A DNA stretch of 40,000 nt from Desulfobulbaceae bacterium. GTDB taxonomy: Bacteria > Desulfobacterota > Desulfobulbia > Desulfobulbales > Desulfobulbaceae. The translations under genes were made by a program, and so were the position numbers. Under the pieces are notes generated by a model. It searched no databases. It was given only the letters and a program-made list of their open reading frames with translations, and was not told the DNA's origin. Position 1 is the stretch's first letter. Each line of letters begins with the position of its first letter. Positions 9,187 through 28,821 of the stretch are shown one piece after another. The stretch covers positions 890,960 through 930,959 of the forward strand of contig CAXXDG010000002.1 in NCBI GenBank assembly GCA_963678525.2. Reading direction: 5' to 3'.

Positions 9187-10101
9187 ATGGAGCTGAAATA
9201 TAAATTTCACAACGGTTCAGGAGTCATCGAAAACGATACAATATTTCTTCAATATGCTCTTCGAAAGGAATCCTATCCCCTGAAAGAGGTTGTCGGTTTG
9301 TATCGCTACAAGAGTTTCGGAATGGATACACTAGTTGTTGCTTCAGGTCTGCCCGGTGGAAAAATCAAATCAGAGCTCATTCTTCTCGGACGGGAAAATG
9401 TGCCGGAAGCATTTATAGATGAACTTGTAGCTCAGGCTCCGAAATCAGCCAACCTGTTGCATCTGCCAAAGAAGGAAGCGTTCAAGAAAATGGGAATAGC
9501 TGGAAAGATGCGATACAGCATGATTGCAGTGTTTATCCTCACTTTTCTGATTATATGCGGTTATTTTTCTCCCCAGATTTATCATGGAATTATGGACAGA
9601 CATCTGGTCCCGGTATCTGTTGAGGATATGTACGCAGGGAATTCACTTTCCTCAAACTTTGTCAGCGTGAATGCCCATCTGCCGACCTCACCCTTAATCG
9701 TCAGCTATACAAAATGGTGGTCTTCCTCCCGCCCATTTTTCGAAAGGAGAAAGAAAGGATTCTACCCCATTGTTCCCGGTGACTGGAAGCAGGGAGATCC
9801 TATACGAATGGTTCTGATGGTCGATGGAGGTTTCGAACTGAAAAATATCGCACTACACGAGGACAAGGACATAACCGTACAAGGTATCGTACGCAACGTC
9901 CTGTGGGAACGTTTTTTCTGGTCCGGTTCAATGGAGAACCTTTCCCGGCATGCAAAATCACCGGTCGAACATCCGATAGTAATAGAATACAACACCAGGC
10001 CCGTGTACGAAATGGTGTGGTATCTCGGCGGCACCCTGTTCTTTATAATCCTTTTTTTAAGCATCGCCGGTCTGCGGAGCAGAAACACGAATGGAAGATG
10101 A
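9187..10101 (+). CDS. Hypothetical membrane protein (two hydrophobic segments)
   Basis: 304-aa ORF with a GAAGGA RBS. Predicted TM segments MIAVFILTFLIICGYF and VWYLGGTLFFIILFLSIAGL. No recognisable family. Confidence 0.6.
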   Translation: MELKYKFHNGSGVIENDTIFLQYALRKESYPLKEVVGLYRYKSFGMDTLVVASGLPGGKIKSELILLGRENVPEAFIDELVAQAPKSANLLHLPKKEAFKKMGIAGKMRYSMIAVFILTFLIICGYFSPQIYHGIMDRHLVPVSVEDMYAGNSLSSNFVSVNAHLPTSPLIVSYTKWWSSSRPFFERRKKGFYPIVPGDWKQGDPIRMVLMVDGGFELKNIALHEDKDITVQGIVRNVLWERFFWSGSMENLSRHAKSPVEHPIVIEYNTRPVYEMVWYLGGTLFFIILFLSIAGLRSRNTNGR

Positions 10102-10337
10102 CATGCGGCAGGCAATCCCCCCATACGTTTTGCATAAAATAATGCGGCGGTAACTGCTCACAATGCACCTGATCTTTCCATGATCAAGTCGGCTTACGTA
10201 TGACCAAATATACGCTGCGCCGGCCTGCTTGCGTAAACCTCAGACACACTGTAATCAGTTATAAGTACGGGGGATTTGGCAAACTTAACCACTTCCCCTA
10301 TGAGTAGTTTCATGCTGCGAAGTAAATGAAAGGTAAT

Positions 10338-10372
10338 AAAAAAACCCGCTAACCATTGCTGGTTGCGGGTTT
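10338..10372 (-). terminator. Intrinsic terminator hairpin (distal copy)
   Basis: Minus-strand RNA CCCGCAACCA-GCAA-UGGUUAGCGGG followed by U7. Confidence 0.7.
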
Positions 10373-10431
10373 AACGAATCAAGGTGGACAACCTTGGATT
10401 ATAAAATGGTGCGAAGGCGGGAACGGAATTC
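10338..10431. repeat. Distal att repeat (terminator hairpin copy plus degenerate tRNA-Leu 3' fragment)
   Basis: 31 bp are identical to 28668-28698. Imperfect homology then continues through GGACAACCTTGGAT to TGGTGCGAAGGCGGGAACGGAATTC (compare the tRNA 3' end TGGTGCCGAAGGCGAGAGTCGAACTC). Confidence 0.85.
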
Positions 10432-10492
10432 AAGGGAATATTTTTAGTAAAATTAGATAATTGCCAAGTATGAGTTTTTTGTGTTTTTTATC

Positions 10493-10516
10493 TGTACCCG
10501 CTTTTGTACCCGCTTT
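10493..10516. repeat. Tandem 12-bp repeat TGTACCCGCTTT x2 (candidate integrase arm-type sites)
   Basis: Two exact tandem copies just inside the distal att. The octamer TGTACCCG recurs at 28614-28621 and inverted at 28564-28571, just inside the int-proximal att. Confidence 0.5.
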
Positions 10517-10664
10517 GTGCAGATGTAGATGGTCGCTTGACAAATTTGCCGGTTTAAACTTGCCAGCTCGGTTAGTACGAGTTGTTTTTTGTATCGGCGC
10601 TTTGCTGGGTGGACAACAAAAGAATATAATCCTGCCCTTGCAAACAGGCTTGATATAATGCAAA

Positions 10665-11999
10665 CTACAATGGTTTCCATGGAACAACCTCTGCCTGGCT
10701 AGGCCCTCTTTGTTTCAACCTGTTGCCATAAGTGCCAGAATACTGACAAACAGCGAGAATACCTAATTCTAAAAACCATAGCCCTAGATTCCAGGCTTCG
10801 AAAGTTGCATTGTCTAGCTGGCCTCGCTTTTTGTGCTCTGGGTGAACAAGAGAATTTCTTGTTTCAGTCAAAGCATGAGGAGCGTCTATCCAGTTATGTT
10901 TCTTGGCCAAGGTCTGTAGCTCTTTCATTTCGTTCGGTATTTCTATAGGGATGTCCAGGGATGAGAACAAAAGACGAAATTTATCTGACGCCCAAAGATC
11001 TTTAAAGCCTTTTGCGGTTACAAGTTTTTTGCTTTTAACTGCAAATTCATATGATAACCTTTCTATGGCTGCTTGCGTGAGTATGATTCCAGCGTCAATC
11101 CCTCTTGATGAGTCATTGGCAATAAGATACCAATAAATAACCTCATGAAGCGCTTCTTTCCAGTCGTCATCACTCCACTTGTCCATAAACTTCGGGAAAA
11201 AAACGCTAAGCTGCTCACCTCGCCTTCTATCGAACCATGAAAAGGTCGTATATCCAGTATCTCTGGGAGAAGACCAGCTTTCCCAGACCTGATTATAATT
11301 TCCATCATGCCCAACAGCGCAGACAGGATCAATCCACCTACCGATAGCAAATGAAAGAAAAAATTTCAAAGTATTAATGAAACACTCTGCTTCCTCCCCG
11401 CTATATGTAATATCGTCATTCTTCTCAAAAGAACCGATATGGGTTAAGCGATAGCCTCCTTCTTCTTTAAGTGATTCCATTGCCTTTTTGGTAGATTTCA
11501 GGGAGCGTATTTCAACGCACCAGTCATGGTTTTTCAACTCTAAATGCTCAATGGGGTGGCAGGTGTTCCCTTCTTTTTCAGTTGAACGCCTAGTACCTGA
11601 AAAGGAGACAAAATTAAGCAAGTGGAATGTTGTTGAAGCTATTGATGTATCATTGTTACCTGTACCAATGATTGGCTCATAGTGAGGGCTCCACTTTATA
11701 TCAAACTTACCCGTTGTGGCATCCCCGCCGCAGCTCAACCTGGATCCTTCTATTGGTATGCCGTTCATAGTAAAAATGACGCCTTGTGTTTTTCCCAATT
11801 GTACCCTCGTGGCGTCAACGGCTGATACTCCTTCAAAGTGACCATGAAAAAGCAATTGGCTTCGGGGAATCAATTCTAAGAATGCTTCCCCGTTTCCTTG
11901 ATAAGTAGTTTCGTCAATGGAAAGACTTACTGTTGAGCTGTTTATCAGCACTTTTTTATTATCTGAAAAGAAATCGTATATAGGCTCTATATTAGTCAT
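10665..11999 (-). CDS. HEPN-motif protein (ApeA-like), putative abortive-infection RNase
   Basis: 444-aa ORF in an AT-rich block. The C-terminal helical region carries ETRNSLVHPEH, i.e. the HEPN RNxxxH (Rx4H) motif at 10842-10859. The large N-terminal beta-rich domain fits the ApeA architecture (N-terminal domain plus C-terminal HEPN). The family call is from the motif only. Confidence 0.6.
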   Translation of the reverse strand: MTNIEPIYDFFSDNKKVLINSSTVSLSIDETTYQGNGEAFLELIPRSQLLFHGHFEGVSAVDATRVQLGKTQGVIFTMNGIPIEGSRLSCGGDATTGKFDIKWSPHYEPIIGTGNNDTSIASTTFHLLNFVSFSGTRRSTEKEGNTCHPIEHLELKNHDWCVEIRSLKSTKKAMESLKEEGGYRLTHIGSFEKNDDITYSGEEAECFINTLKFFLSFAIGRWIDPVCAVGHDGNYNQVWESWSSPRDTGYTTFSWFDRRRGEQLSVFFPKFMDKWSDDDWKEALHEVIYWYLIANDSSRGIDAGIILTQAAIERLSYEFAVKSKKLVTAKGFKDLWASDKFRLLFSSLDIPIEIPNEMKELQTLAKKHNWIDAPHALTETRNSLVHPEHKKRGQLDNATFEAWNLGLWFLELGILAVCQYSGTYGNRLKQRGPSQAEVVPWKPL

Positions 12000-12272
12000 A
12001 TTGCATATCTGGTCGTAATTAAATGCTTAATCGCTTAAGCAGACCGTGGACGTATTTCATTATCGGTTTTCCCTCAGCTTCCTTTGTTGCTGGGCTCATC
12101 TTCATGGGCATAAAAGACCTGGCCGGAAAGTCGCCTCCGTCCAGGAGGTAACGTTTGCGACAATTTCACGCGCTTGTGTTCGTGCGCACGTTTGCCATGT
12201 GTATGCACAATAGTCTTGGGTATAACGACAAGGTACCCGGCGAGCTGCAGCGAGTCCGCGTTGACCGATTGG

Positions 12273-12761
12273 TTACGGCTTTTCATTTCCTGCTTTTCTG
12301 ACAAGATTCAATATGATTAGAGTAATTAATGAAAGCTGAACTATATTATTAATTGCTGACATTAACATTGAATTAAACAAAAGCGGAATGCATATATTCG
12401 CAAAGCCGAGAATAGAAAGTGCAAATGTGAGTATTAAATTAATTATTGCGAACCAGTATACAGACACAAGCAGATCTAAATATCCTTGCCTTCGATACTT
12501 TTGAAATGAATTGGTTCTAATCAGACTGAACAGGATAGTAATAATTGCGGCCAAAAAGCCTAGCATTGTAAAGCTGAAGGTAGCTATTACAATAGAAAGA
12601 TTTATTCTCTGAGCAAATAGACCCAGTGAGATATTCAGATAACCTGAGAGGTAATTACTGTATATTAGGTAGATAAGGGGTCCAGGAATTAACGTCAATA
12701 AAGCTATTAATATCTTCAGGTGTCGCTTCCGTGAATCTTTCATCATTTGAAAATTCCTCAA
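12273..12761 (-). CDS. RexB-like small membrane protein with four hydrophobic segments
   Basis: 162-aa ORF directly after, and overlapping, the RexA-like gene. It has four long hydrophobic segments. The N-terminus MRN... and the block TMLGFLAAIITILFSLIRTN...YRRQGY resemble lambda RexB as I recall it (TMIAILIAALTFLIGSRTRR...IREYGY). The start is uncertain, with a 90-107 nt overlap with the upstream gene. Confidence 0.6.
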   Translation of the reverse strand: MRNFQMMKDSRKRHLKILIALLTLIPGPLIYLIYSNYLSGYLNISLGLFAQRINLSIVIATFSFTMLGFLAAIITILFSLIRTNSFQKYRRQGYLDLLVSVYWFAIINLILTFALSILGFANICIPLLFNSMLMSAINNIVQLSLITLIILNLVRKAGNEKP

Positions 12762-13587
12762 CCTTTAGCTCTAGATGCATGTTGTTGTTTGTTTTATTTA
12801 CAATGTGTTCATATATAGCATTTTCTTCTCTTGTGTTAATAGTTTCTGAAATTGCTCCTTTGCCAACAAGGTATAAATCAGTTAAGTGATCCTGCAATTC
12901 GTCTTTTGCCTTAATTATTAGCTTTCCTAAACCATCATCTGGTATAGAATTTACAAATTTTTTAACTATTGGTTGAATATTTTTTCTTTTTTTGGGTTTA
13001 ATTACTATTTCGAATGATTCAACTTCACCAACATCATCAGCGTTTCCACCAACAAAATTGAGAATATCTGCAGCCATTGAATTTTCCTTTTCAATTTCAA
13101 TAGTCGTTCTTCCAAGAAATGGTAATTGCAGTACTTCTTCTTTAGACGCTTGATGCAAGAGAGCTTGTGCGATAAACCTATAGTGACCAAGGTCAACTTT
13201 ACGGAATATTTCATCAATAAGATGAACCAGAGCTGGTATTTTAGGAGCTAAAAATGTTGATGCAAAACCTAAGAAATTGTTTTGAATATATACATATGAT
13301 GCAAATCCTAGTTGCTCGCCTTGATCAAGAAGTTCATAGATTTCATTGACATTTAAATCATTGGTGTTGATTTTTTTAATGACTTCATTACTTCTTGTCA
13401 TCACGAATAGATAAATATCTTGTGCGGCAGGGAACAAATATATTTGTTCATTATTGTACTGAAATGAGTTTTTAAATGTTACTGAATCTAGATTGCAAAA
13501 TGTCCTTATCAATGCTCTTATGTCATACAAGTAAGACATATTATCTTCTGTTTTTTCAATGTGATAGCCGAAATAGTTCAATTTCAT
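12655..13587 (-). CDS. RexA-like protein (phage-exclusion sensor component)
   Basis: 310-aa ORF. Two blocks align with lambda RexA from memory. Block 1: KKINTNDLNVNEIYELLDQGEQLGFASYVYIQNNFLGFASTFLAPK vs QKINRSKASVEDIKNSLADDESLGFPSFLFVEGDTIGFARTVFGPT. Block 2: FLGRTTIEIEKE..DILNFVGG..ESFEIVIKPKKRKNI vs FIGRTTVKVEAK..DILKVLGA..DSLDIVIKPKFKRDI. Gene order matches rexA-rexB. Confidence 0.7.
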   Translation of the reverse strand: MKLNYFGYHIEKTEDNMSYLYDIRALIRTFCNLDSVTFKNSFQYNNEQIYLFPAAQDIYLFVMTRSNEVIKKINTNDLNVNEIYELLDQGEQLGFASYVYIQNNFLGFASTFLAPKIPALVHLIDEIFRKVDLGHYRFIAQALLHQASKEEVLQLPFLGRTTIEIEKENSMAADILNFVGGNADDVGEVESFEIVIKPKKRKNIQPIVKKFVNSIPDDGLGKLIIKAKDELQDHLTDLYLVGKGAISETINTREENAIYEHIVNKTNNNMHLELKVEEFSNDERFTEATPEDINSFIDVNSWTPYLPNIQ

Positions 13588-13608
13588 ACAATCCTCTTTG
13601 TTCCATAA

Positions 13609-14052
13609 CTAGGTCTTTTTCGAGTGATGATCTGGTGCCGATTCATACTGAGCGTTTACCGGCAAAAGGGTTGCGGCTTCTTTCAATTCACCGCTAATAA
13701 AATACCAGGGCATCGACGGTGACGGCGCTGTCCTGCAGGTATATTGCTTCCGGCGCTGCACCTGCAAGCGTTGCCCTTGCCAGGCTGTTTTCTTTTTCAA
13801 AAGATTTGCCATGGTTGCCGCAATGACCAACTTGTAGCGGAAATGACGCTGGTGCAGCCATTCCGCTACAAGTTGTGCACGTCTGCAATTGTTCCCCCAG
13901 GGTAAAATATCACCTGCCACAATGAGTATATCGCCTGGCGGCAAGTTGATTTTGGCATGCATTCCATTAAGAATTCTCCCAATTTTTATGCATAAAGAGA
14001 GGAAACTTGAAACAGATAAAAGTTTCATACCATGTTTCCATATAGTTGCCAT
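13609..14052 (-). pseudogene. Calcineurin-like metallophosphoesterase, frameshifted and 3'-truncated
   Basis: Frame A gives LPPGDILIVAGDI...YKLVIA. The expected GNHD block (GNHGKSFE...YLQDSAVTVDALVFY) is in another frame (track ORF 13694-13888), consistent with loss of 1 nt in the G run near 13818-13821. A premature stop follows, and the rest is missing or degenerate. Confidence 0.6.
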
Positions 14053-14191: not shown

Positions 14192-16015
14192 TCATGCCTC
14201 AGCGCGGATCTGTTTTGCCAGTTTGGAGCAGTAGCCTTTACTGATTTCCAGCTCTTCGGCTATGTCCTTTTGGCTGTAGCCTTCATCGAGGAGTTTTCCC
14301 ACCTTATCCTGCAGGCTTTCCTCGATGGTGCGCAGCTGCCAGGTGAAACCGTCTTCCCCCGCTATCAGTCCGGCTTCGAATGGTTTTACGTCGTCCCCGT
14401 GCAGGCCTCGGTTTTTGCGGAAATGGACCTCGAACAGTGCGCCCTGGTCGGGTGTGTATGACTTTGGCCGCATGAGCTGGATAACCGTATCCAGTACATC
14501 TTCTTTTCTGGAGCTGCCTCGCTGCATGCCGCCTTTGCCGTCATGATGGACCAACAGCACCGATTTACCCATGGCCCGCATGCGGAGTGCCCATTCCTGT
14601 ACCGGTAACCAGGCGTCGGATTTATTTTCCGATGTGCTCCTGCAGACCGTGGAAATATTGTCCAGGATGATCAGGCTTATGTCCTCGGTGAGGATGGTAT
14701 CCACCTGGGCCTGGCCTTCAGGGCTGCCAAGGTCTGGAATGCTTCCCTGCTGCAGGCCAGGGGTAATGATCTGCAGGTTATCTGCCAGGCTCTTATCCAT
14801 GTTGGCCATGGTGCCAGCTATTCTTTCTTTAATGGTTACCGCCGGCATTTCTCCATCAATGAACAGCACGCCCCTGGGCTTATCCGCTTTCCAGTTGAGG
14901 AAACTGGATCCGGTTGCCACTGCGCAGCCGATCCCCAGGCTTATGTGGGTTTTGCCCACTCCCCGGTAAGCATGCAGCAGGCAAAGGCCCTGCTCTGGCA
15001 ACCAGGGGGAAAGCAGGTTATTCCGGGGCGGGAATTCCCGGGAAAGCAGGTTACCTGCTGTTATAACCACAGGTGAGGGCACCATTGGCCGGTTTTGTCC
15101 GGTTTCCATCCTGGTTTCTCCGGCCTGGCCGTAAAGGTTGCCGATGTTCGTTACAGTGTAACGGGGTGTCGGCTCCTGTTCAGGCGGAGCATTGTAAGAA
15201 AGCGCCTTTTTGATGGTTGCTTGCCCATAGGTCAATTGCCCGTGTCTTGTGTCCCATTTCTGCCGAAACAGGCAGGACGCCCGAAAAATGGCGTCCATTT
15301 GCTGTGGATCGTTGTTTGTCCAGAATGCCAGGATAGAACAAAGGGCAAGGTCGGCCTCGCTCTGGCTGGCGTAGCCGTTCATGTTGCCCTGCATGAGGTT
15401 TGCAAACAGCTGGGCCTGTTTGCTTGCCCGGATCCGCTCTACGGTTGCCATGCCTGCCTTGTCCAGGTTGTTGAGTGTAGCAGTCATTGCCGCCCGGGAA
15501 AAGACCTGGTCGATTTGCTGCTGGCAGTAGTTGACCTGGTCTACATGGGTTAGCCTGTGGCCGGTAATGGTGAGATACCAGGCGTGGTCATAGATTTCTA
15601 TATTCTTTTGCTTCAGGTTTCTGGGGATCTTCCCGGCTGCTATAATCCGCAAGCCTTCACCGCTGGGGCTGATCTCGGTATAGGTTTGCAGCTTGTGGAC
15701 AATCTCCATTGCTTCTTTGCTTGCGCCTCGGCTGCCTACGCAGTGGTCCAGATCTATAAAGACAAAGGGATCCTGTGCGGTGGTACAATAGCCGATACCG
15801 TCATAGCCGCCTTCCTCATAGGCGGCCATGACTTCGGAAAAATCAGCCCAATGGCTGGGGTTTGTTTTGTCGGCGGTTTTGCCGTTGATCCGGAACGGCG
15901 GCTTTGTCCAGCGGGAGCCCTGGAGCTGGTAGCACCACAGCACCCATTGTGGAAATGACTTGAGCTGTTCAGGAATGCCGGCTGCAACAATGTGTAAAGG
16001 GTTAGGCTTGGTCAT
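14192..16015 (-). CDS. Bifunctional prim-pol / RecA-like (AAA_25-type) replication ATPase with C-terminal HTH
   Basis: N-terminal prim-pol features (FPQWVLW, FVFIDLDHC DxD motif). Middle QSEADLALCSILAFWTNNDPQQMDAIFRAS is a primase C-terminal type helix bundle. Walker A YRGVGKTH and Walker B VLFIDGE are present. C-terminal SQKDIAEELEISKGYCSKLAK is an HTH. GGGGAGGA RBS. Confidence 0.8.
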   Translation of the reverse strand: MTKPNPLHIVAAGIPEQLKSFPQWVLWCYQLQGSRWTKPPFRINGKTADKTNPSHWADFSEVMAAYEEGGYDGIGYCTTAQDPFVFIDLDHCVGSRGASKEAMEIVHKLQTYTEISPSGEGLRIIAAGKIPRNLKQKNIEIYDHAWYLTITGHRLTHVDQVNYCQQQIDQVFSRAAMTATLNNLDKAGMATVERIRASKQAQLFANLMQGNMNGYASQSEADLALCSILAFWTNNDPQQMDAIFRASCLFRQKWDTRHGQLTYGQATIKKALSYNAPPEQEPTPRYTVTNIGNLYGQAGETRMETGQNRPMVPSPVVITAGNLLSREFPPRNNLLSPWLPEQGLCLLHAYRGVGKTHISLGIGCAVATGSSFLNWKADKPRGVLFIDGEMPAVTIKERIAGTMANMDKSLADNLQIITPGLQQGSIPDLGSPEGQAQVDTILTEDISLIILDNISTVCRSTSENKSDAWLPVQEWALRMRAMGKSVLLVHHDGKGGMQRGSSRKEDVLDTVIQLMRPKSYTPDQGALFEVHFRKNRGLHGDDVKPFEAGLIAGEDGFTWQLRTIEESLQDKVGKLLDEGYSQKDIAEELEISKGYCSKLAKQIRAEA

Positions 16016-17972: not shown

Positions 17973-20639
17973 TTACCTTGCCCCTGACCAGTGGAATTCA
18001 TTAATTGCTTTCAGTACGGTGCGGGCAATATTATTTGCATCCGCCCTGCTGGTCATAAATCCGCCGACCTTAAGGTTTACCGTGTTATTGACAACCTGGC
18101 GGCCTGTTTGTGCTGCCGCTGTGGCCTGGCCGCCTTGCTGAAATTTTTGGATCCCTTGAGGATTGAGTACCATGGTATTGTTTATAAGACCGCCTGTGCG
18201 TGCCCTGAGAAGTTCCATGGAGTTTAGCTGCAGGGCATTGAGGGCTTGGAAATAGGCTGCGCCGTATTTGCGTACTGCCTCTTTGCGGATAACGAATTCA
18301 CCGGCCTCCAGGAGGGCAGGGATCCGGTCCCCTCCGCCATAGCCTGAAAGTTTTCCTCCTGATCTCAGTTTGTGAACCATGCCACCTGTTGCTTTGGCCG
18401 CTACTTCCTGCACCTTGACGTTTATTTGGTAATCCCTGTTGACCAGGTCGTTCAGTTTTTGCTGGAGGTCATCAACAGAGTCTGAGCCGCCTTTCAGGAA
18501 ATCGTTCCAGGTTTTATTCCAGGCTTTATTGAAGTCAGTTGCTGTCTCCTTCAAGGCTTCTGCCTCTTTACTTATAGCCCCAAATTCTTCAGCCAGCTTG
18601 CCGCCTGTTTGATCGTCCAAGGCCTGGGCTGCCTCCTCGGCTGCTGCTTTCTGTTGCTGTAATATTTCTGTGGCCAGCTTTCCTGCCTGTTCCACCCCGG
18701 CCATGGCTGTTTTGAGCGCGGTCTGCTGGCTTATAATGGTATTGTCGTTTACCTTGACTTCGTTGTTAAGGTCTGCATAAGCTGTTTTGGCCATGTCAGC
18801 ATATTTAATTGCCGTGCTGAAGTCGCCGGACTGGGCCGCCTTCTTGGCTGCAGTTTCGTATTCCTGGGCCTCTCTTTTGCGATCCTGCCAGGCGCTGTAG
18901 TCATCCATGCCGGTCCTGGACATGGAGCGGAGCTGTTCCTGCAGGGACCGTTCCCTGTTGACGATTTCATCCTGCAGCCTAGTTATCTCGCTGACGTATG
19001 TCTGGTACTGCTGTTTCAACTTTTCCAGCTTTTCCTTACCGAGTTGAACCTCTTGGTCGGCTGTCTGTTTGGCCTTGGTTCCGACCTTGTTATAGGCTGT
19101 TTCCGCCACCTCGCCATAATCATTCATGGCGCTTTCGATCTGTTCCAGTCTCGTCCTTGCTGCAGCCAGTTCCACTTCGGCCTGGCGAGCTTCATTGGTC
19201 ATGCCGCCAAATATGGTTCTATCTTTGGATTTGAGGTAGAGGTCCTGTACAATGGCAGACTGGTGTTTGAAGGCTCCTATGAGTTGATTTTCATAGGCTC
19301 GGAGTTCGGTGGTGCTCTTGGCGAATAAGCTTTCTTTGCTTTCCGGTTGAAAATAAGCAAACTGCCTGAATTTAGCGGCGGTAATGTCCAGCTCGTGCTG
19401 CAGCTCGCGCAAGGCTATTTCTGTAGGCTCTGTCCATTCATAGAGCTTGGTGCCAATGGCCATGCCTGCTATCAGGGCGAGGGTTGCCCCTGCTGCTGCT
19501 CCCAATGCTGCGCTTGCAGTAAGTGCGGCAGCTCCGGATCCGGTAAGGGCGACATTCAGGCTGCCAAGGTAACGAATAAGGCGCATGCCTGTCATAGCCA
19601 TCATGGCGGCGTTGAGCCCCTGCCATGCGCCGGTAAGTATGACTACTGCTTTGTGTACGGTTAACAGGGCGGCCGAACCCAGGCCGAGTTTTACTGCAAG
19701 TTCTCCATGATTGACGGCGGCATTGAGAACAGCTTCAGCCATGGTGAAAAAGCGGTTGGAGAGGGTTACTATCTTGTCTTGAAGGTTTGGGTCGGATAAG
19801 GCTGCGGTGAAATCTGTAATTTTCCCGGTGACGGTATCAAGAAAGCCTGACTTTGAGACGGTGGTAGCAAGGTCGAACCAGGCGTTCTTGAATTTATTGA
19901 TAGCGGCCTGGGCGCTGTTGCTTGCATCCAGTGCGGCCTGGCCGAATTTGTTGTGAAGCACCTCTGAAAGTTTGGGGATGAAGTCTGTGGAAACGATCTG
20001 GCCTGCTGATATCAGGCCGAACAGTTCTTCTGTGCTTGTGCCTACGGCTTTTGCAAAGTCCTGAAAGCCGACCCCAGGGAGGGCCTCTGCGATCGTTTTT
20101 AGATCTTCCAGTTCAAACCTGCCGCGGCTTATTCCCTGGGAGATCTGGGCAAAGGTCCGGTTGATTTCGTCACCGGATGCGCCTACAGCAGCGGCGGTTT
20201 CTGATACAGCCCTGAACAGATCGCGCGTTGCCGCTCCTTCAATGTCTGTGCCCTGGCTGGCAGCAATGAGCCCCCTGTATGCTGTGGCAGCTGACTGGAA
20301 TTCTATCCCAAGCTGGTTGGATGTTTCTTTCAGGTATTCAAGTTCAGATCTGGCTGCAGCCGAACTGCCGGTGATTGATTGAAAACTCTTCTGCAGGTTG
20401 TCGAATGCCAGGCCTGCGTCAAATACGCTTTTGGTGAATGCTGCCGCCGATACTCCACCAAAGAGACCGGCAAGCTTGGAGGGTAAGCCTAACAGGCTGT
20501 TGTTGAGTGCCCTGGAATGATTCAGGCTCGACTGGATGCTCTTGTCAAAAGTGTCGAATCCTTTGTACGCATTCTTGATGCCCTTGTTAAAGGCGGTCGG
20601 GTCGATGGAGAGTATAAAGTCTATTTCTTTCTTGCCCAT
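17973..20639 (-). CDS. Phage tail tape measure protein
   Basis: 888 aa. N-terminal tape-measure block (RGRFELEDLKTIAEALPGVGFQDFAKAVGTSTEELFGLISAGQIVSTDF), a hydrophobic Ala/Gly-rich centre and long coiled coils. The C-terminal GGDRIPALLEAGEFVIRKEAV motif is typical of TMPs. Confidence 0.85.
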   Translation of the reverse strand: MGKKEIDFILSIDPTAFNKGIKNAYKGFDTFDKSIQSSLNHSRALNNSLLGLPSKLAGLFGGVSAAAFTKSVFDAGLAFDNLQKSFQSITGSSAAARSELEYLKETSNQLGIEFQSAATAYRGLIAASQGTDIEGAATRDLFRAVSETAAAVGASGDEINRTFAQISQGISRGRFELEDLKTIAEALPGVGFQDFAKAVGTSTEELFGLISAGQIVSTDFIPKLSEVLHNKFGQAALDASNSAQAAINKFKNAWFDLATTVSKSGFLDTVTGKITDFTAALSDPNLQDKIVTLSNRFFTMAEAVLNAAVNHGELAVKLGLGSAALLTVHKAVVILTGAWQGLNAAMMAMTGMRLIRYLGSLNVALTGSGAAALTASAALGAAAGATLALIAGMAIGTKLYEWTEPTEIALRELQHELDITAAKFRQFAYFQPESKESLFAKSTTELRAYENQLIGAFKHQSAIVQDLYLKSKDRTIFGGMTNEARQAEVELAAARTRLEQIESAMNDYGEVAETAYNKVGTKAKQTADQEVQLGKEKLEKLKQQYQTYVSEITRLQDEIVNRERSLQEQLRSMSRTGMDDYSAWQDRKREAQEYETAAKKAAQSGDFSTAIKYADMAKTAYADLNNEVKVNDNTIISQQTALKTAMAGVEQAGKLATEILQQQKAAAEEAAQALDDQTGGKLAEEFGAISKEAEALKETATDFNKAWNKTWNDFLKGGSDSVDDLQQKLNDLVNRDYQINVKVQEVAAKATGGMVHKLRSGGKLSGYGGGDRIPALLEAGEFVIRKEAVRKYGAAYFQALNALQLNSMELLRARTGGLINNTMVLNPQGIQKFQQGGQATAAAQTGRQVVNNTVNLKVGGFMTSRADANNIARTVLKAINEFHWSGAR

Positions 20640-22877: not shown

Positions 22878-23215
22878 GCTGTCACCAGGAGGTGGAAAAT
22901 AGCGGTTTTGCTGTCACCAATTGCCATTCAGCTGTCACCAAATTGAAGTGAAAATTTTAAGCGCGACCTACTTAATACTATATAACTATATAATATTATT
23001 ATATATGTTATATACAGAGGTTGCTATCTGGTGACAGTGGTTACAGTGGTGACACCTGTTTTTTACGCGCGTGAGAGTTGTTCTCTTTTTTCAGTAAACT
23101 CTTTTTCTATTAAGGGGAAAATGCTGTCACCACTGTAACCACTGTCACCAGTGACCTAATTACAACGAGTTAACACTGTCACCACGATTTTTTTTCAGTG
23201 TAACCACTGTCACCA
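22878..23215. promoter_or_regulatory. Replication origin candidate: 9-bp iterons CTGT(C/A)ACCA flanking an AT-rich unwinding element
   Basis: There are 12 copies. Direct copies start at 22879, 22911 and 22932. Inverted tandem TGGTGACAG/TGGTTACAG/TGGTGACAC spans 23029-23055. Direct tandem copies span 23124-23150, with further copies at 23176, 23198 (GTGTAACCA) and 23207. Nearly pure A/T sequence lies at 22971-23016. Confidence 0.7.
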
Positions 23216-25842
23216 GGATCTGGCTCGGTTGCTTCATCGGGAGTGCCTAGGTTGTTTTGGTGCCACTTAAGGTCGAAAACCCATACTCTTCTTTGTTTGG
23301 GTCTCCCTGATTTGTCAGTTTCTGGGTCATCGGGGAAACGGTAGGCATAGCTGTTTTTGACGTATGATGGATGAGCTTGCAGGGCCTTGGCGAGTTGCTC
23401 GTTTACCTGAAAGTTCAGTCCTTTGTTCTTTAAGAGGTTCTCAACTCTGGGTAGATTGACGAGTATTCTGTTTTTTTCAGAGTCAAGATGATAGGCAGTA
23501 GCCGCCTTATCGTCCGGGAGAGTGTCCAGCAGCTCGAAAAAATAATCTGCGGTGGTTGTTTGTCGGATAGCTGAGGTAATGCATTTCTGGCGGCAGATAT
23601 CTCTGAAGTAATCAGTAACCGCCTGGTCCTGCTTGATAGAATACAGGCTACAAAAAAGGCGGTGAAATGCCAGAATGAGTGCATGGTTATCCAGTATCCT
23701 TCTTTCTGGCATGGGGGATAGGTCTGTTCTGGCTTTTTTCCATTCTTCGGTCCAGTTTGACTCAAAGTGCTTGCGATTCATCAATACATTTTGAATGAGT
23801 CCGGCCAGGATTGGCTTGTCCATGTTCGTTAGCTTTTCGTAAGCTACCCGGGAATTGTCGGTTAGGTCTTCGGCTTTAAAATGAAGGGAAATTACGCGCT
23901 GGCGCTCGGCTTTTGAATTGAACGGCTCGGTATTTTGACAAAATAGAAGCGCCCCAAGAAAGGGGTTTTCCTTGGTTTGTAAGTCGGCGCTGAATGTTGC
24001 CTGCACTTGCAATGGGCCTCGATTATAGGCCGTCAAAATGATGCTATAGTCAAACCCTCGCTCGTTACGCTCGTTATCCTCAAGCAGGGCGGTAAACAGT
24101 CCACTGAGTTGGCCAATGGTTCGTATGCTTCCTTTTTTAGAATTGAGCTGGGTAACAGGCAGGCCTTCACCGTCTCGCCCCTGGATGGCGTTCAGTAGCG
24201 TTACTAAAGCGCTTTTCCCTGATGCTGGATCCCCGTGTAAGCTGAGAAAAGGGAAAAAATTGCACTCTGCCTTTATTTGATTCACGAAAAAACTTGAAAG
24301 TACCAAGGAAAAGGCAGAAATCCCGTTCAGGCCCCATGCGTCATGCAGCAGAGTATATATTTCTTTGACCTGAGATTTGTTGATTGTTGCAGGGGAAATG
24401 GCCTTGCCGGCGCCATGAACCGGCGGCCGGTAAGATTGGTTGTAGGCTATTCGAAAGTGTCCCCGTTTGTCTGGCAGGAAAAGCTTGCCTTCTGGACCCA
24501 CGCCCCAGTCGTGGAAGATATAACTGTCGTTTTCAGGCTGATATCCGATAACCTGGGCCTGGCATACCTCAGGTGCTGACTGGTCACTGGTGATCTTGGT
24601 TTGAAATGCAGTGGCCGCCCTTGGGTTGCCTTCCCAGTTTATTTTAGCCCGAGAAAGAAAAAACTCGTTTATGGATCGTGAGTTGACCAGGTTGGTCCCC
24701 GTGGCGGTAACCTCGATCTGCTTTCCTTTTGGTGGTTGTACAATGAGGTTGTAAAGATATTCTGGCTGTGCTGGGTTGGCTTTGTTGATCAGGTAACTGT
24801 TCACCCGAACTGTGGCTCTCAAGCAGCGCTCTACATCAAGAAATGGCGTGTCGTTGCCTTTCTGTTTCTTTAATGCGCTGTAATAGGTTGAGCCTTGAAA
24901 ATTGAACAGTCCTGGGGCTCGATGATAAAATTCGTTATAAATTTCCGCCCACTCAGTGGAGGTCTTGGCCAAGGCCAATTCTCCATTGTGTTTAAAACGG
25001 GGAAGGGAACGCTGAAAGTATTTTCTGGCGTCCTCCAGTGAGCTGGAAGAAGCCAGGAGGTCGTTCCAGTCTTTACCTGGATCACACAAATAGACTTCTG
25101 CTTCTGGATAAACTGCCGACCATTTGGCACAAGCACGATGGCCGGCAGGATCATTATCAAAAGCAAGCACCTTATTTTTAAATTCTGACAAGTCTACCTT
25201 GTGCGGATCCTGGCCGCTTGATATCACAGCAATGGCTTGGTAACCAAGCTCTATTAGGGATATAGCGTCGATAATCCCTTCTACGGCCCATACTTTTTTT
25301 TCTGGATCATAGGTAAAGCCTGGGTGGCGGTAGAAAATTGATTTCGGGCTATTAATATTGTGTGTTTTCCCCTCACCTGGTGGTGGGGAAAACAGTCTCC
25401 CATTTAGGATCTCTTTGCCCTTGCTATCCTTGCCTATAGGAAACATGACAGCGCCGGATCCTGTGTTTCTCACATTCTTGAGATAACGAAAATCAAGGCC
25501 ATCAAGTGTCTTGTTGATTCCCCTGGACTTAAGGTATTCCCGGGCAGGCTTGTGGGGATCGTTTTTCGTGGCCGGAAAGTCCTTTTCGACGTTCCCTTTC
25601 AGTTCAGGAAAAAGCTCAAGTGTTTTCGTGCTGGTGCCACAGTTCGAAAGCCTGTTACAGTTAATCGCCATGGGGCTTTGTTGGTACGCCCATGCGCTCT
25701 TGTCCCCACATGCTGGACAGGTGAGTCCTTGGATGCTATTTCCGTTACACCTGGTATGCCTGTTCCAATAGGGTGACTGTTTGAGGCGATCGAGGATTTT
25801 GTTGGTTAGGCCTTGCAACGCTTTACCTCCAGGTTGTTTCAT
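23179..25842 (-). CDS. Zn-finger / Toprim primase fused to P-loop helicase (P4 alpha / PICI Pri-Rep analogue)
   Basis: 887 aa. N-terminal CPACGDKSAWAYQQ...NCNRLSNCG zinc finger. Toprim block VWAVEGIIDAISL...VLAFDNDPAGHRA. Walker A LHGDPASGKSAL. The C-terminal domain abuts the iterons. Confidence 0.85.
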   Translation of the reverse strand: MKQPGGKALQGLTNKILDRLKQSPYWNRHTRCNGNSIQGLTCPACGDKSAWAYQQSPMAINCNRLSNCGTSTKTLELFPELKGNVEKDFPATKNDPHKPAREYLKSRGINKTLDGLDFRYLKNVRNTGSGAVMFPIGKDSKGKEILNGRLFSPPPGEGKTHNINSPKSIFYRHPGFTYDPEKKVWAVEGIIDAISLIELGYQAIAVISSGQDPHKVDLSEFKNKVLAFDNDPAGHRACAKWSAVYPEAEVYLCDPGKDWNDLLASSSSLEDARKYFQRSLPRFKHNGELALAKTSTEWAEIYNEFYHRAPGLFNFQGSTYYSALKKQKGNDTPFLDVERCLRATVRVNSYLINKANPAQPEYLYNLIVQPPKGKQIEVTATGTNLVNSRSINEFFLSRAKINWEGNPRAATAFQTKITSDQSAPEVCQAQVIGYQPENDSYIFHDWGVGPEGKLFLPDKRGHFRIAYNQSYRPPVHGAGKAISPATINKSQVKEIYTLLHDAWGLNGISAFSLVLSSFFVNQIKAECNFFPFLSLHGDPASGKSALVTLLNAIQGRDGEGLPVTQLNSKKGSIRTIGQLSGLFTALLEDNERNERGFDYSIILTAYNRGPLQVQATFSADLQTKENPFLGALLFCQNTEPFNSKAERQRVISLHFKAEDLTDNSRVAYEKLTNMDKPILAGLIQNVLMNRKHFESNWTEEWKKARTDLSPMPERRILDNHALILAFHRLFCSLYSIKQDQAVTDYFRDICRQKCITSAIRQTTTADYFFELLDTLPDDKAATAYHLDSEKNRILVNLPRVENLLKNKGLNFQVNEQLAKALQAHPSYVKNSYAYRFPDDPETDKSGRPKQRRVWVFDLKWHQNNLGTPDEATEPDPGDSGYTEKKSW

Positions 25843-27306: not shown

Positions 27307-28545
27307 TCACTTGTTTGCTTGCTGCCCAATTGGAATTATCTCTGCACCATATTCAAGTTGTTGCAGTAGATCCGCCCACCACTGCATGAGCTCACGGCGC
27401 TGTTCCATGTATTCGCTTCGATGATAAGCTGCCCGGATCTTATTTCTTTCTTCATGGGCGAGTGCTTTTTCAATTACATCACCATTAAATCCTGATTCAT
27501 TGGCAATAGTGCTGAAGGTGGCTCTAAAGCCATGCACAGTCGCTTTAGAATGATATCCGAGGCGGTATAATCCATACAGCATTGTATTTGCGGATAACTG
27601 TTTACTGCCCTGTCTGATTCCTGGAAAAATAATTCCCTGCCCTCCGTAAAGCACTTTGAGCCTTTGAAGGATGGCTAATGCCTGCTTTGAAAGAGGAACA
27701 TTGTGCTGGCTGGACATCTTCATTCTTTCTGCAGGGACTCTCCAGATATTATTTTCCCAGTCTATTTCGTTCCAGGTTGCCCCCCTGACTTCATCTGTCC
27801 TTGCAGCGGTGAGTATCAGAAATTGGAGTGCAAGTTTTGTATTGATATGGATATCGCCGGCAGAAATATCCTTTAGCATTTGGGGCAAGTCTTCCCGACT
27901 GATAGCGGCATGGTGTACTCGTTTTTTTGGTTTCAGAACACCCTGCATGTCTGCAGCTGGATTATACGTTGCGCGGCCAGTTTGGATGGCATACCGAAAA
28001 ACAGAGCTCATTCTCTGTAATACTTTTCGTGCTATTTCTAATGCGCCCCGTGATTCTATGCTTCTGATTATTTCGAGTATTTGTGGTGGTGATATATTAT
28101 CAATGGGAAGATGGCCTATACTGGGAAAGGCATCGTGTTGAAGTGTTGCCAGGACGTGGTCACTATGGCTTTTTGACCAGCGTTCTCGCTGAAGAGTCAC
28201 CCACTCCTGGGCCAGTGATTCAAAAGAGTCTCTCTTGCTTTGATTTTTCGCACGTTCTTCTTCAATAACAATCTGCTTCTCTTCACGTCGTTTGCTTGCC
28301 GGGTTCTTTCCAGCTTTGACAAGCTCCCTGGCCTCCTGTCTTGCTTTCCTGGCATCCTCTAAACTAATTTTCGGGTACGACCCGATCACGTACGTTGATT
28401 CTGTACCCGCTATTTTGTAACGGTAGCGCCAGGTTTTCTTTCCAGACTTGGCAACGTGAAAATATAAGCCATGGCCATCACTTAGCTTGTATGGCCTTTC
28501 TTTTGTCTGAGCGTTGCGGACTTGAAGAGCGGTGAGTTTACCCAT
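27307..28545 (-). CDS. int: Tyrosine recombinase, P4-type integrase with DUF4102-like arm-binding N-terminus
   Basis: N-terminus GKLTALQVRNAQTKERPYKLSDGHGLYFHV...KTWRYRY. Catalytic residues are visible in LTAARTDEVRG, HGFRATF and LAHEERNKIRAAYHRSEY. ATG at 28545 lies 7 nt after GGAGGGG. Confidence 0.92.
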   Translation of the reverse strand: MGKLTALQVRNAQTKERPYKLSDGHGLYFHVAKSGKKTWRYRYKIAGTESTYVIGSYPKISLEDARKARQEARELVKAGKNPASKRREEKQIVIEEERAKNQSKRDSFESLAQEWVTLQRERWSKSHSDHVLATLQHDAFPSIGHLPIDNISPPQILEIIRSIESRGALEIARKVLQRMSSVFRYAIQTGRATYNPAADMQGVLKPKKRVHHAAISREDLPQMLKDISAGDIHINTKLALQFLILTAARTDEVRGATWNEIDWENNIWRVPAERMKMSSQHNVPLSKQALAILQRLKVLYGGQGIIFPGIRQGSKQLSANTMLYGLYRLGYHSKATVHGFRATFSTIANESGFNGDVIEKALAHEERNKIRAAYHRSEYMEQRRELMQWWADLLQQLEYGAEIIPIGQQANK

Positions 28546-28667
28546 GTTTCCCCTCCATGAAATCGGGTACAAAATATAAGGGTATTCGTGTGCGAAATGC
28601 TTATACCCACATCTGTACCCGATTATTTCATGGATTTCAATGGAAGAAAATGGAGTGTGATGGAAAC

Positions 28668-28700
28668 AAAAAACCCGCTAACCATTGCTGGTTGCGGGAT
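28668..28700 (-). terminator. Intrinsic terminator of tRNA-Leu / secG operon
   Basis: Same hairpin as at 10345-10369, followed by U6 on the minus strand, 35 nt after the tRNA CCA end. Confidence 0.75.
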
Positions 28701-28762
28701 TTAAGTACCAAGATGGACAACCTTGGATATATAATTGGTGCCGAAGGCGAGAGTCGAACTCG
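28668..28762. repeat. tRNA-proximal att repeat
   Basis: Counterpart of 10338-10431. It spans the tRNA terminator hairpin, the 35-nt spacer and the last ~26 nt of tRNA-Leu. Confidence 0.85.
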
Positions 28763-28821
28763 CACGACCGTGGGCCACTACCCCCTCAAGATAGCGTGTC
28801 TACCAATTCCACCACTTCGGC
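28736..28821 (-). tRNA. leuU: tRNA-Leu (anticodon GAG), CCA encoded
   Basis: The reverse complement GCCGAAGTGGTGGAATTGGTAGACACGCTATCTTGAGGGGGTAGTGGCCCACGGTCGTGCGAGTTCGACTCTCGCCTTCGGCACCA folds as a class II tRNA: 7-bp acceptor stem, anticodon loop TTGAGGG, long variable arm, T-arm GCGAG/CTCGC. The position directly after secG matches E. coli secG-leuU. Confidence 0.93.

Follow-up and report, generated by a model that had tools for sequence, protein, structure and literature searches.

A YopA-family gene with a predicted HEPN-type C-terminal domain at the distal end of a tRNA-Leu island in a Desulfobulbaceae bacterium

The YopA-family gene and its predicted domains

The stretch of DNA analyzed here (the window) comprises 40,000 nucleotides (nt) of a Desulfobulbaceae bacterium (GenBank assembly GCA_963678525.2, contig CAXXDG010000002.1, positions 890,960 to 930,959), and the gene under study lies near one end of a genomic island inserted at a tRNA-Leu gene. 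The 444-amino-acid (aa) open reading frame (ORF) that had been claimed in an initial annotation of the sequence is real; it begins with ATG, lies on the minus strand and is intact and full length relative to its homologues (Table 1). Its product is, by sequence, a member of the YopA family, defined by the Pfam domains YopA_M (PF26308) and YopA_C (PF27216). The peptide ETRNSLVHPEH highlighted in that annotation was present, with R381-H386 located 58 aa before the C terminus (about 60 had been given). The domain containing it probably belongs to the HEPN superfamily, judging from conservation and the predicted model described below.

A word-indexed homologue search returned 498 proteins, and precomputed PF26308 and PF27216 assignments were present on all 120 proteins listed, that is, the window protein and 119 listed homologues. 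An exhaustive profile search recovered 3,490 cluster representatives (50% identity) at E<=1e-3, with 1,655 at E<=1e-30, and most of the representatives were 430-460 aa long. The family is patchily spread over many bacterial phyla plus the archaeal Methanosarcina. The E. coli homologue (WP_001565355.1, 437 aa) is called "YopA family protein" in the newest RefSeq annotation and was found in 9-19 of 5,426 complete genomes, on both chromosomes and plasmids. BLAST matches to the cyanobacterial and E. coli relatives started only at residues 105-162. In a tblastn search of annotated phages, the sole match was Bacillus phage SPbeta, whose yopA (SPBc2p071) is a full-length homologue with 28% identity over 97% of the protein (E of 2e-38), and a single distant copy was found on the viral contigs of IMG/VR. 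SPbeta YopA resembles the window protein, which carries both Pfam domains, in length (438 versus 444 aa) and in its RNxIVH motif, with RNKIVH at the position matching RNSLVH, but the two differ in sequence at 28% identity and in setting, the moron region of a Bacillus prophage versus a tRNA-Leu island beside RexAB. The yopA region of SPbeta also holds a repressor, the yonT toxin, a RES-domain protein and a superinfection-exclusion gene. Scans of the window protein against PADLOC, NCBIfam, PHROGs and a copy of Pfam without PF26308 and PF27216 gave 0 matches at E<=10. Profile searches of PDB sequences with the family alignments likewise gave 0 matches at E<=10, indicating no solved relative by sequence.

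Conservation singled out one motif. A bare Rx4-6H pattern is expected about once by chance in 444 aa, and the window protein contains two. In a divergent alignment of 61 sequences with 30-56% identity to the query, R381 was kept in 60/61 sequences, N382 in 98% and H386 in 61/61; the second match, R46x5H52, was not conserved. E313 (61/61), Y291 and R427 were also invariant. In a closer alignment of 34 sequences with 52-60% identity, the RNS..HP block was invariant and E318-x3-K322 nearly so. The window copy retained every invariant residue. Mean column identity was 0.25 in the N-terminal domain versus 0.46 in the C-terminal domain, and the conserved residues of the segment between them were F217, G220, G230 and W255.

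AlphaFold2, run with the family alignment, produced a three-part model of the full chain with a mean predicted local distance difference test (pLDDT) score of 86.9 and a predicted template-modeling score (pTM) of 0.88. The large N-terminal region without a catalytic motif that had been described is present, but in the predicted structure it spans ~255 aa rather than ~330 aa and comprises a beta-rich part (residues 1-195), with ~13 beta strands in residues 16-193, and an alpha/beta part (residues 196-255). The beta-rich domain is presumed to be a sensor or recognition module, and the alpha/beta segment probably corresponds to part of YopA_M. The C-terminal helices were predicted at 261-275, 278-295, 301-323, 329-368 (three short helices forming an insert), 373-385 and 396-417, and the same helices were obtained when this domain was modeled alone (pLDDT of 82.2).

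These predictions were compared with the definition of the HEPN domain given by Anantharaman et al. 2013 (PMC3710099). There, the core is a four-helix up-down bundle, frequently with an insert between helices 2 and 3; the Rx4-6H motif is found where core helix 3 ends and the loop toward helix 4 begins, its arginine being followed directly by a polar residue (N/D/H); and a second conserved residue, which is acidic, precedes the motif, usually in helix 2 and commonly within an Ex3[KR] pattern. In the predicted model, helices 278-295, 301-323, 373-385 and 396-417 form such a core with the insert at 329-368, helix 373-385 ends at V385, and H386 opens the loop before helix 396-417. The residue directly after the arginine is N382, and by sequence the invariant E313 in helix 301-323 takes the place of the upstream acidic residue, making it a candidate active-site residue. 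The earlier description of a conserved RNxxxH motif in a helical C-terminal domain with HEPN topology was thus borne out by the alignment and the AlphaFold2 model. A Foldseek search with the isolated C-terminal domain gave as its top match the HepT-type HEPN toxin 7bxo_F (probability of 0.82, E of 0.41, template-modeling [TM] scores of 0.36/0.51), and the highest TM-scores in that search belonged to HEPN proteins (4nqf, 0.43/0.55; 8xeh, 0.35/0.49; also 8yuf), none of these matches being significant. A PilZ-like reading of the N terminus was considered and dropped, with TM-scores of ~0.1.

The immediate sequence agreed with the initial annotation in that no GGAG/AGGA-type run occurs within the 20 nt preceding the ATG, confirming the absence of a Shine-Dalgarno sequence, and in that the gene is AT-rich (G+C content of 0.41-0.44 versus ~0.50 in the chromosome and the island core). 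In the consensus scan, terminator-like hairpins were no commoner than expected from shuffled sequence, and the hairpin that follows the stop codon is suggestive at most.

Table 1. Positions of the gene, its predicted domains and the island features in the window, and of the two validated ApeA genes (prefixed L013 and L014) used for comparison
Feature	Position	Strand	Basis or remark
YopA-family gene, intact, full length versus homologues	10665..11999	-	ATG start, 444-aa ORF
N-terminal beta-rich domain, ~residues 1-195	11415..11999	-	AlphaFold2 strands E16 to E193; boundaries approximate
Middle alpha/beta segment, ~residues 196-255	11235..11414	-	Predicted secondary structure and conservation; boundaries approximate
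C-terminal helical HEPN-like domain, ~residues 256-444 (Pfam YopA_C)	10668..11234	-	
Predicted catalytic motif R381-N-S-L-V-H386	10842..10859	-	End of helix 373-385 and start of next loop
Codon of invariant E313, helix 301-323	11061..11063	-	Candidate second, acidic HEPN active-site residue
Weak terminator-like hairpin	10631..10648	-	Consensus scan; 17 nt past stop codon
RexB-like membrane protein	12273-12761	-	Weak, near full-length match
RexA homologue	12655-13587	-	Pfam RexA, E of 3.3e-62
607-aa protein with domains NrS-1 polymerase HBD, AAA_25 and HTH_7	14192-16015	-	
888-aa ORF with tape-measure (TMP_3) domain	17973-20639	-	E of 6.5e-27
887-aa Toprim primase	23179-25842	-	~25% identity to primases of P2-like Ralstonia/Pseudomonas phages
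Island anchor: P4-type tyrosine integrase (27307-28572) and tRNA-Leu(GAG) (28736-28821)	27307..28821	-	
Distal attachment site (att) repeat: partial tRNA-Leu 3' end and duplicated terminator hairpin	10339..10430	not assigned	Aligns with 28668-~28761, extended from a 31-nt exact seed
Tandem TGTACCCGCTTT, two copies	10493..10516	+	Probable recombinase arm-type sites, distal island end
Ec2ApeA, 583 aa	L013:2605-4356		
Ec1ApeA, 601 aa	L014:2651-4456		RefSeq label "HEPN family anti-phage protein ApeA"

Relation to ApeA and other HEPN proteins

The initial annotation described the protein as resembling ApeA. As a statement of family membership this did not hold, and the window protein falls outside the ApeA family as defined by experiment. 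Validated ApeA sequences (Ec1ApeA and Ec2ApeA) were recovered from complete E. coli genomes with the 5' sequences listed in the supplementary material of the preprint by Juozapaitis et al. 2026 (doi 10.64898/2026.01.26.701840). No ApeA match was obtained with PADLOC for the window protein (E<=10) or for any of 61 relatives, and NCBIfam gave 0 matches for the window protein, the presence of an ApeA model in the release searched being unconfirmed. BLASTP between the window protein and Ec2ApeA was not significant; the best segment placed TETRNSLVH over YRTRNLIVH, with R381/H386 over R502/H507, and hhalign likewise aligned the motif with R502/H507. The mutation R502A abolishes ApeA defense (doi 10.64898/2026.01.26.701840), and by alignment the catalytic R-N-x3-H of ApeA appears to be present in the window protein. 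Comparison of the 61-sequence YopA alignment with a 42-sequence ApeA alignment that included Ec1ApeA and Ec2ApeA gave an E value of 0.064 and a probability of 0.9%, the C-terminal domains alone gave a P value of 0.012 and a probability of 3.6% over 51 columns around the motif only, and whole-length and domain-only comparisons with 3-sequence and 42-sequence ApeA alignments all matched the motif helix only. The cryo-electron microscopy entries of ApeA, if contained in the PDB copy searched, were not detectably similar to the family profile.

The architectures also differ. The ApeA monomer is predominantly alpha-helical, with a catenin-like N domain, a PafA-like Mid domain and a split HEPN domain, and it assembles into a decameric or dodecameric doughnut with a pocket for the ligand pdNG and cuts the tRNA anticodon (doi 10.64898/2026.01.26.701840). 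In the window protein, ~13 beta strands were predicted at residues 16-193, no family-level sequence similarity is detectable, and the total length is 444 aa rather than 583-601 aa. The window protein is ~140 aa shorter, its HEPN core is less split, and the spacing from the helix glutamate to the catalytic arginine is 68 residues compared with 131 in Ec2ApeA. What ApeA (Gao et al. 2020; doi 10.64898/2026.01.26.701840) shares with the window protein is the combination of a noncatalytic N-terminal region with a C-terminal HEPN domain in a single polypeptide, the catalytic helix W..TRNx[LI]VH, and carriage in mobile-element hotspots; by analogy, the expected output of both would be the same, tRNA cleavage and abortive infection.

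The Pfam families that bear the Apea name are a different matter. HEPN_Apea (PF18739) gave subthreshold matches in 13/61 divergent relatives, the best with an E value of 8e-4, and was the only Pfam family matched by more than one of them; these matches cover the motif region, and two further ones placed it on the C-terminal half of the profile. ApeA_NTD1 (PF18862) was matched by 1/34 relatives (E of 0.011). The validated Ec1ApeA and Ec2ApeA had no Pfam match at E<=0.01, and their homologues carried no precomputed Pfam domains; therefore, HEPN_Apea and ApeA_NTD1 do not cover the family now called ApeA. Anantharaman et al. 2013 described ApeA-NTD1 as a region of ~300 aa, mostly of beta strands and with conserved aromatic residues, and ApeA as embedded in restriction-modification (R-M) operons. 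This description of the "ApeA/BMEI1217" clade (PF18739/PF18862) fits the YopA family better than it fits E. coli ApeA, but Pfam treats YopA_M and YopA_C apart from PF18739 and PF18862. We read YopA_C as a HEPN domain from the wider "Apea-like" neighborhood and its family as distinct.

Other HEPN proteins offered partial parallels. HepT (PDB 7BXO, 5YEP and 7AE8) was the closest structural neighbor of the isolated C-terminal domain, below significance, and it is also the closest neighbor of the HEPN domain of ApeA (doi 10.64898/2026.01.26.701840). HepT is a minimal HEPN protein of ~130 aa neutralized by MNT, whereas the window protein has a putative sensor region of ~255 aa and no MNT partner. 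PrrC and RloC are HEPN ribonucleases (RNases) that sit inside methyltransferase-based defense operons (type I R-M) and serve as a backup once the primary defense has been inhibited. The YopA family resembles them in that 21/48 of its loci lie in bacteriophage exclusion (BREX) type 3, MmeI-like type IIG or type I contexts. PrrC and RloC carry an N-terminal ABC-type ATPase, and in this they differ from the window protein, with its beta-rich domains, no nucleoside triphosphatase motif and no partner in the window. DARNA was rejected as the same family, having an N-terminal HEPN domain and a helical C terminus.

The tRNA-Leu island and genomic context across the family

The phage-related island extends over ~10.43-28.74 kb (18 kb), and the YopA-like stop codon lies ~235 nt inside its distal end. 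The gene's position as the final one before the distal att, as stated earlier, was confirmed by the att repeat, the tRNA-Leu gene and the integrase, whose domains are Arm-DNA-bind_3, Phage_int_M and Phage_integrase, and its description as a single gene carried as distal-end cargo of a tRNA-integrated island in a defense context was supported. The att repeat includes ~26 nt of the tRNA-Leu 3' end plus the downstream terminator hairpin of the tRNA. As a direct repeat it is unusually long (~90 nt with a 31-nt exact core; copies at 10339-~10430 and 28668-~28761), and the tRNA remnant at the distal att is degenerate. The motif TGTACCCG(C/A)TT makes up the tandem pair at the distal end; next to the integrase gene it recurs as a pair of inverted copies (28561-28571 and 28614-28624). 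Both pairs are probably arm-type sites bound by a recombinase, marking the two ends of the island. On the chromosomal side, just beyond the distal att, lies an ORF for a 304-aa predicted membrane protein without a Pfam match (9187-10101, plus strand).

All sizeable island ORFs are on the minus strand, in the order integrase, 222-aa ORF, 887-aa primase, small ORFs, 888-aa TMP_3 protein, 607-aa protein, RexA, RexB-like and YopA-like. The TMP_3 ORF stands in the 18-kb island without other recognizable virion genes, and two separate replication-type proteins are present, the 607-aa protein with its NrS-1 polymerase HBD and the 887-aa Toprim primase. A lambda-type RexAB abortive-infection pair lies directly upstream of the YopA-like gene. 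The RexA, RexB-like and YopA-like genes form a module of 37-44% G+C (window positions 10000-14000), compared with ~50% in the island at 14-28 kb and in the chromosome, and this low-GC defense cargo was apparently gained independently of the island backbone. Two systems of abortive-infection type, RexAB and the YopA-like HEPN gene, are thus present in the distal module. RexAB was rejected as a functional partner of the YopA-like protein, RexA and RexB being absent from the other 47 YopA-family loci. No methyltransferase domain was found in the scanned island ORFs of at least 120 aa, and the YopA-like copy here is therefore free-standing, like SPbeta yopA.

To compare the genomic context of the family, 47 loci were obtained from species-representative genomes of many lineages, among them Desulfobacterota, Gammaproteobacteria, Betaproteobacteria, Campylobacterota, Planctomycetota, Chloroflexota, Firmicutes, Bacteroidota, Spirochaetes, Nitrospinota and the archaeal Methanosarcina. 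Of these, 39 were analyzed along with 8 loci from plasmids, SPbeta and metagenome contigs and with the window, for a total of 48. Neighboring ORFs of at least 90 aa within 6 kb were clustered without prior bias, and methyltransferase genes were counted with a panel of query proteins. A methyltransferase gene (BREX type 3, type IIG or type I) was present within 5 kb on the same strand in 21/48 loci and directly abutted the YopA-like gene in 17/48, often with overlapping stop and start codons. In the subclade of the window protein (at least 52% identity), 13 of the 18 loci were next to BREX type 3 or type IIG genes. No neighbor was universal among the clustered ORFs. The commonest, found in 12 loci, was a PglX-like N6 methyltransferase encoded directly upstream of the YopA-like gene in the same orientation (median gap, -29 nt); 7 loci had an SNF2 helicase directly downstream, and PglZ was present in 6 and BrxC in 4.

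The arrangement is illustrated by the BREX type 3 locus of Desulfosoma caldarium (RJVA01000012; L002 8001-9350), where the order is BrxC, Schlafen/HATPase, PglXI (PF01555), YopA-like, SNF2 (BrxHII) and PglZ, with overlapping stop and start codons. A YopA-like gene between PglXI and BrxHII of BREX type 3 was also observed in loci L017-L025, L031 and L045, often with Schlafen/HATPase present. In a second recurrent context, an MmeI-family type IIG enzyme lies 12-19 nt away (six loci: L021, L029, L048-50 and L053), frequently accompanied by a DEAD helicase and a T5orf172 protein. The copy on the E. coli IncY plasmid pZ1323CEC0011-3 (L010 3563-4876) has a recombinase-like gene cluster on one side and a type I R-M system on the other, and the Planktothrix copy is located between an Eco57I-like methyltransferase and an SNF2 protein. 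A 2026 survey (PMC12839542) predicted that stand-alone HEPN endoRNases in BREX loci are "backup suicidal effectors"; the YopA family was not named in it.

Proposed mechanism and competing explanations

We consider it fairly probable that the YopA-like protein is a HEPN RNase effector of abortive infection or defense. This view draws on the size and patchy distribution of the family, the conserved motif residues, the confident models with their HEPN-like topology, the HEPN proteins among the fold neighbors, the subthreshold PF18739 matches, the alignment with R502/H507 of Ec2ApeA, the variable N terminus joined to a conserved C terminus, the methyltransferase genes near many family members and the adjacent RexAB. 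The gene, its family, the conservation of the motif, the predicted fold topology, the island and the context counts are results of the analysis; the RNase activity, its RNA target, the trigger, dimerization and the defense phenotype are what we infer in the following proposal. The protein would consist of a fast-evolving beta-rich N-terminal domain, a conserved alpha/beta middle segment and a C-terminal HEPN-type domain. Pairing of two such C-terminal domains would create a composite, metal-independent endoRNase site made up of R381, N382 and H386 and helped by E313, as proposed from the analogy with all HEPN domains that keep Rx4-6H. The N-terminal and middle domains would keep the RNase silent until a cue of infection is sensed. 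Once activated, the enzyme would cleave cellular RNA, and its likeliest target would be the anticodon loop of tRNAs, by analogy with the tRNA anticodon nucleases ApeA, PrrC and DARNA; translation would stop and the infection would be aborted. The copy here presumably acts on its own, since there is no methyltransferase partner in the window.

Several results weigh against this interpretation. With the isolated C-terminal domain, Foldseek gave no match at E<=1e-3 (best E of 0.41), and with the whole chain, searches of PDB and BFVD returned noise only (beta-barrel proteins, PilZ and EF-Tu domain II). The PF18739 matches all fell below the gathering score (two scored matches of 12.8-15 bits against 24.4), and none was obtained for the window protein, SPbeta YopA or the consensus of the family hidden Markov model. 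No methyltransferase, BREX or R-M gene from the query panel was nearby in 26/48 loci, and no sigma-70-like promoter was found in the 273-nt spacer upstream of the YopA-like gene. The literature searched contained no link of YopA to HEPN or to any function and no experiment on a family member, and PADLOC (2.0) had no model matching the window protein; with no PADLOC model matching, no 2023 defense catalogue includes the YopA family.

The main rival is that the protein is a dependent guard of BREX type 3 or of MmeI-like type IIG R-M, as PrrC is with EcoprrI. A partner complex would hold the effector inactive, inhibition of that complex by a phage would release it, and the window copy would be an orphan, whether silent, decaying or rewired. 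This is what one might read from the 13/18 loci of the subclade that lie beside BREX type 3 or type IIG genes, from the typical order PglXI - YopA-like - BrxHII with its overlapping stop and start codons, from the MmeI-family enzymes 12-19 nt away in six loci and from the prediction of BREX-embedded HEPN backup suicidal effectors (PMC12839542). However, 26/48 loci, SPbeta yopA and the window are without such a partner, the scanned island ORFs (at least 120 aa) contain no methyltransferase domain, and the window copy is intact with all invariant residues kept. Defense genes cluster anyway, moreover, and adjacency alone is no proof of coupling. We hold this explanation to be possible but doubtful. 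That the protein is a true ApeA, a decameric doughnut that senses 5'-phosphorylated deoxydinucleotides between its N-terminal and HEPN domains and cuts tRNA anticodon loops, appears improbable. The logic of a noncatalytic N-terminal region plus a C-terminal HEPN domain in one gene is the same, the catalytic helices are alike (T-R-N-x-[LI]-V-H preceded by W), relatives gave weak PF18739 matches and one weak ApeA_NTD1 match, and Anantharaman et al. 2013 described an ApeA-NTD1 of ~300 aa, mostly beta, and ApeA as embedded in R-M operons. Set against these are the lack of any PADLOC, NCBIfam or Pfam match, hhalign probabilities of 0.9-3.6% over 51 columns, the predominantly alpha-helical 583-601 aa of validated ApeA compared with a 444-aa protein with a beta-rich N terminus, and the Glu-Arg spacing of 68 versus 131 (Ec2ApeA).

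A selfish role, either as an addiction or toxin module or as a service to the mobile element (superinfection exclusion or host shutoff at induction), is quite improbable, even with the SPbeta prophage copy lying near the yonT toxin, a RES-domain protein and a superinfection-exclusion gene, other copies lying on plasmids or beside ParDE or integrase remnants, and HEPN domains being common as toxins (PMC3710099). No conserved small antitoxin-like neighbor was seen among ORFs of at least 90 aa; the association with BREX and R-M is stronger than that with any toxin-antitoxin partner; and the viral contigs of IMG/VR yielded a single distant copy. Finally, the C-terminal domain might be a noncatalytic helical bundle with a ligand-binding or structural role, its RNxxxH serving for binding. 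The fold matches are statistically weak and some HEPN domains do lack catalysis (PMC3710099), but such domains typically lose Rx4-6H, and here the R, N and H are 98-100% conserved at ~30% identity together with an invariant glutamate, making this explanation highly improbable.

Returning to the reading of the protein as an RNase effector, part of it is already familiar: the family is named in Pfam (YopA_M and YopA_C) and RefSeq, and single-protein HEPN RNases are a known kind of defense cargo. New relative to the searchable literature are the HEPN assignment of the YopA family and its strong association with BREX type 3 and type IIG genes. Prokaryotic immunity repeatedly employs HEPN RNases as executioners (Cas13, Csm6, PrrC, ApeA and DARNA), and the point on which these systems differ, and which is least understood, is how infection is sensed. 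As a speculative extension, the YopA family may be a widespread, uncatalogued HEPN immune effector that primarily guards methyltransferase-based immunity, with tRNA cleavage as its output. Inserted between PglXI and BrxHII of BREX type 3 or against MmeI-like enzymes, it might, tentatively, use its variable beta-rich N-terminal domains to sense either phage interference with those complexes or a phage-derived small molecule or nucleic acid. On the same conjectural footing, the free-standing copies, such as those in the window and SPbeta, could be emancipated versions.

The family is large and phylogenetically broad and can be tested in E. coli and B. subtilis, although specialists would find the result unsurprising. 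If it is indeed an RNase effector with a new beta-rich sensor wired into BREX type 3 and type IIG systems, a common defense gene would be added to the catalogues and a function would be assigned to SPbeta yopA. The family, with E. coli homologues that adjoin type I R-M, would also offer a tractable handle on the proposed layer of "backup suicidal effectors" in BREX.

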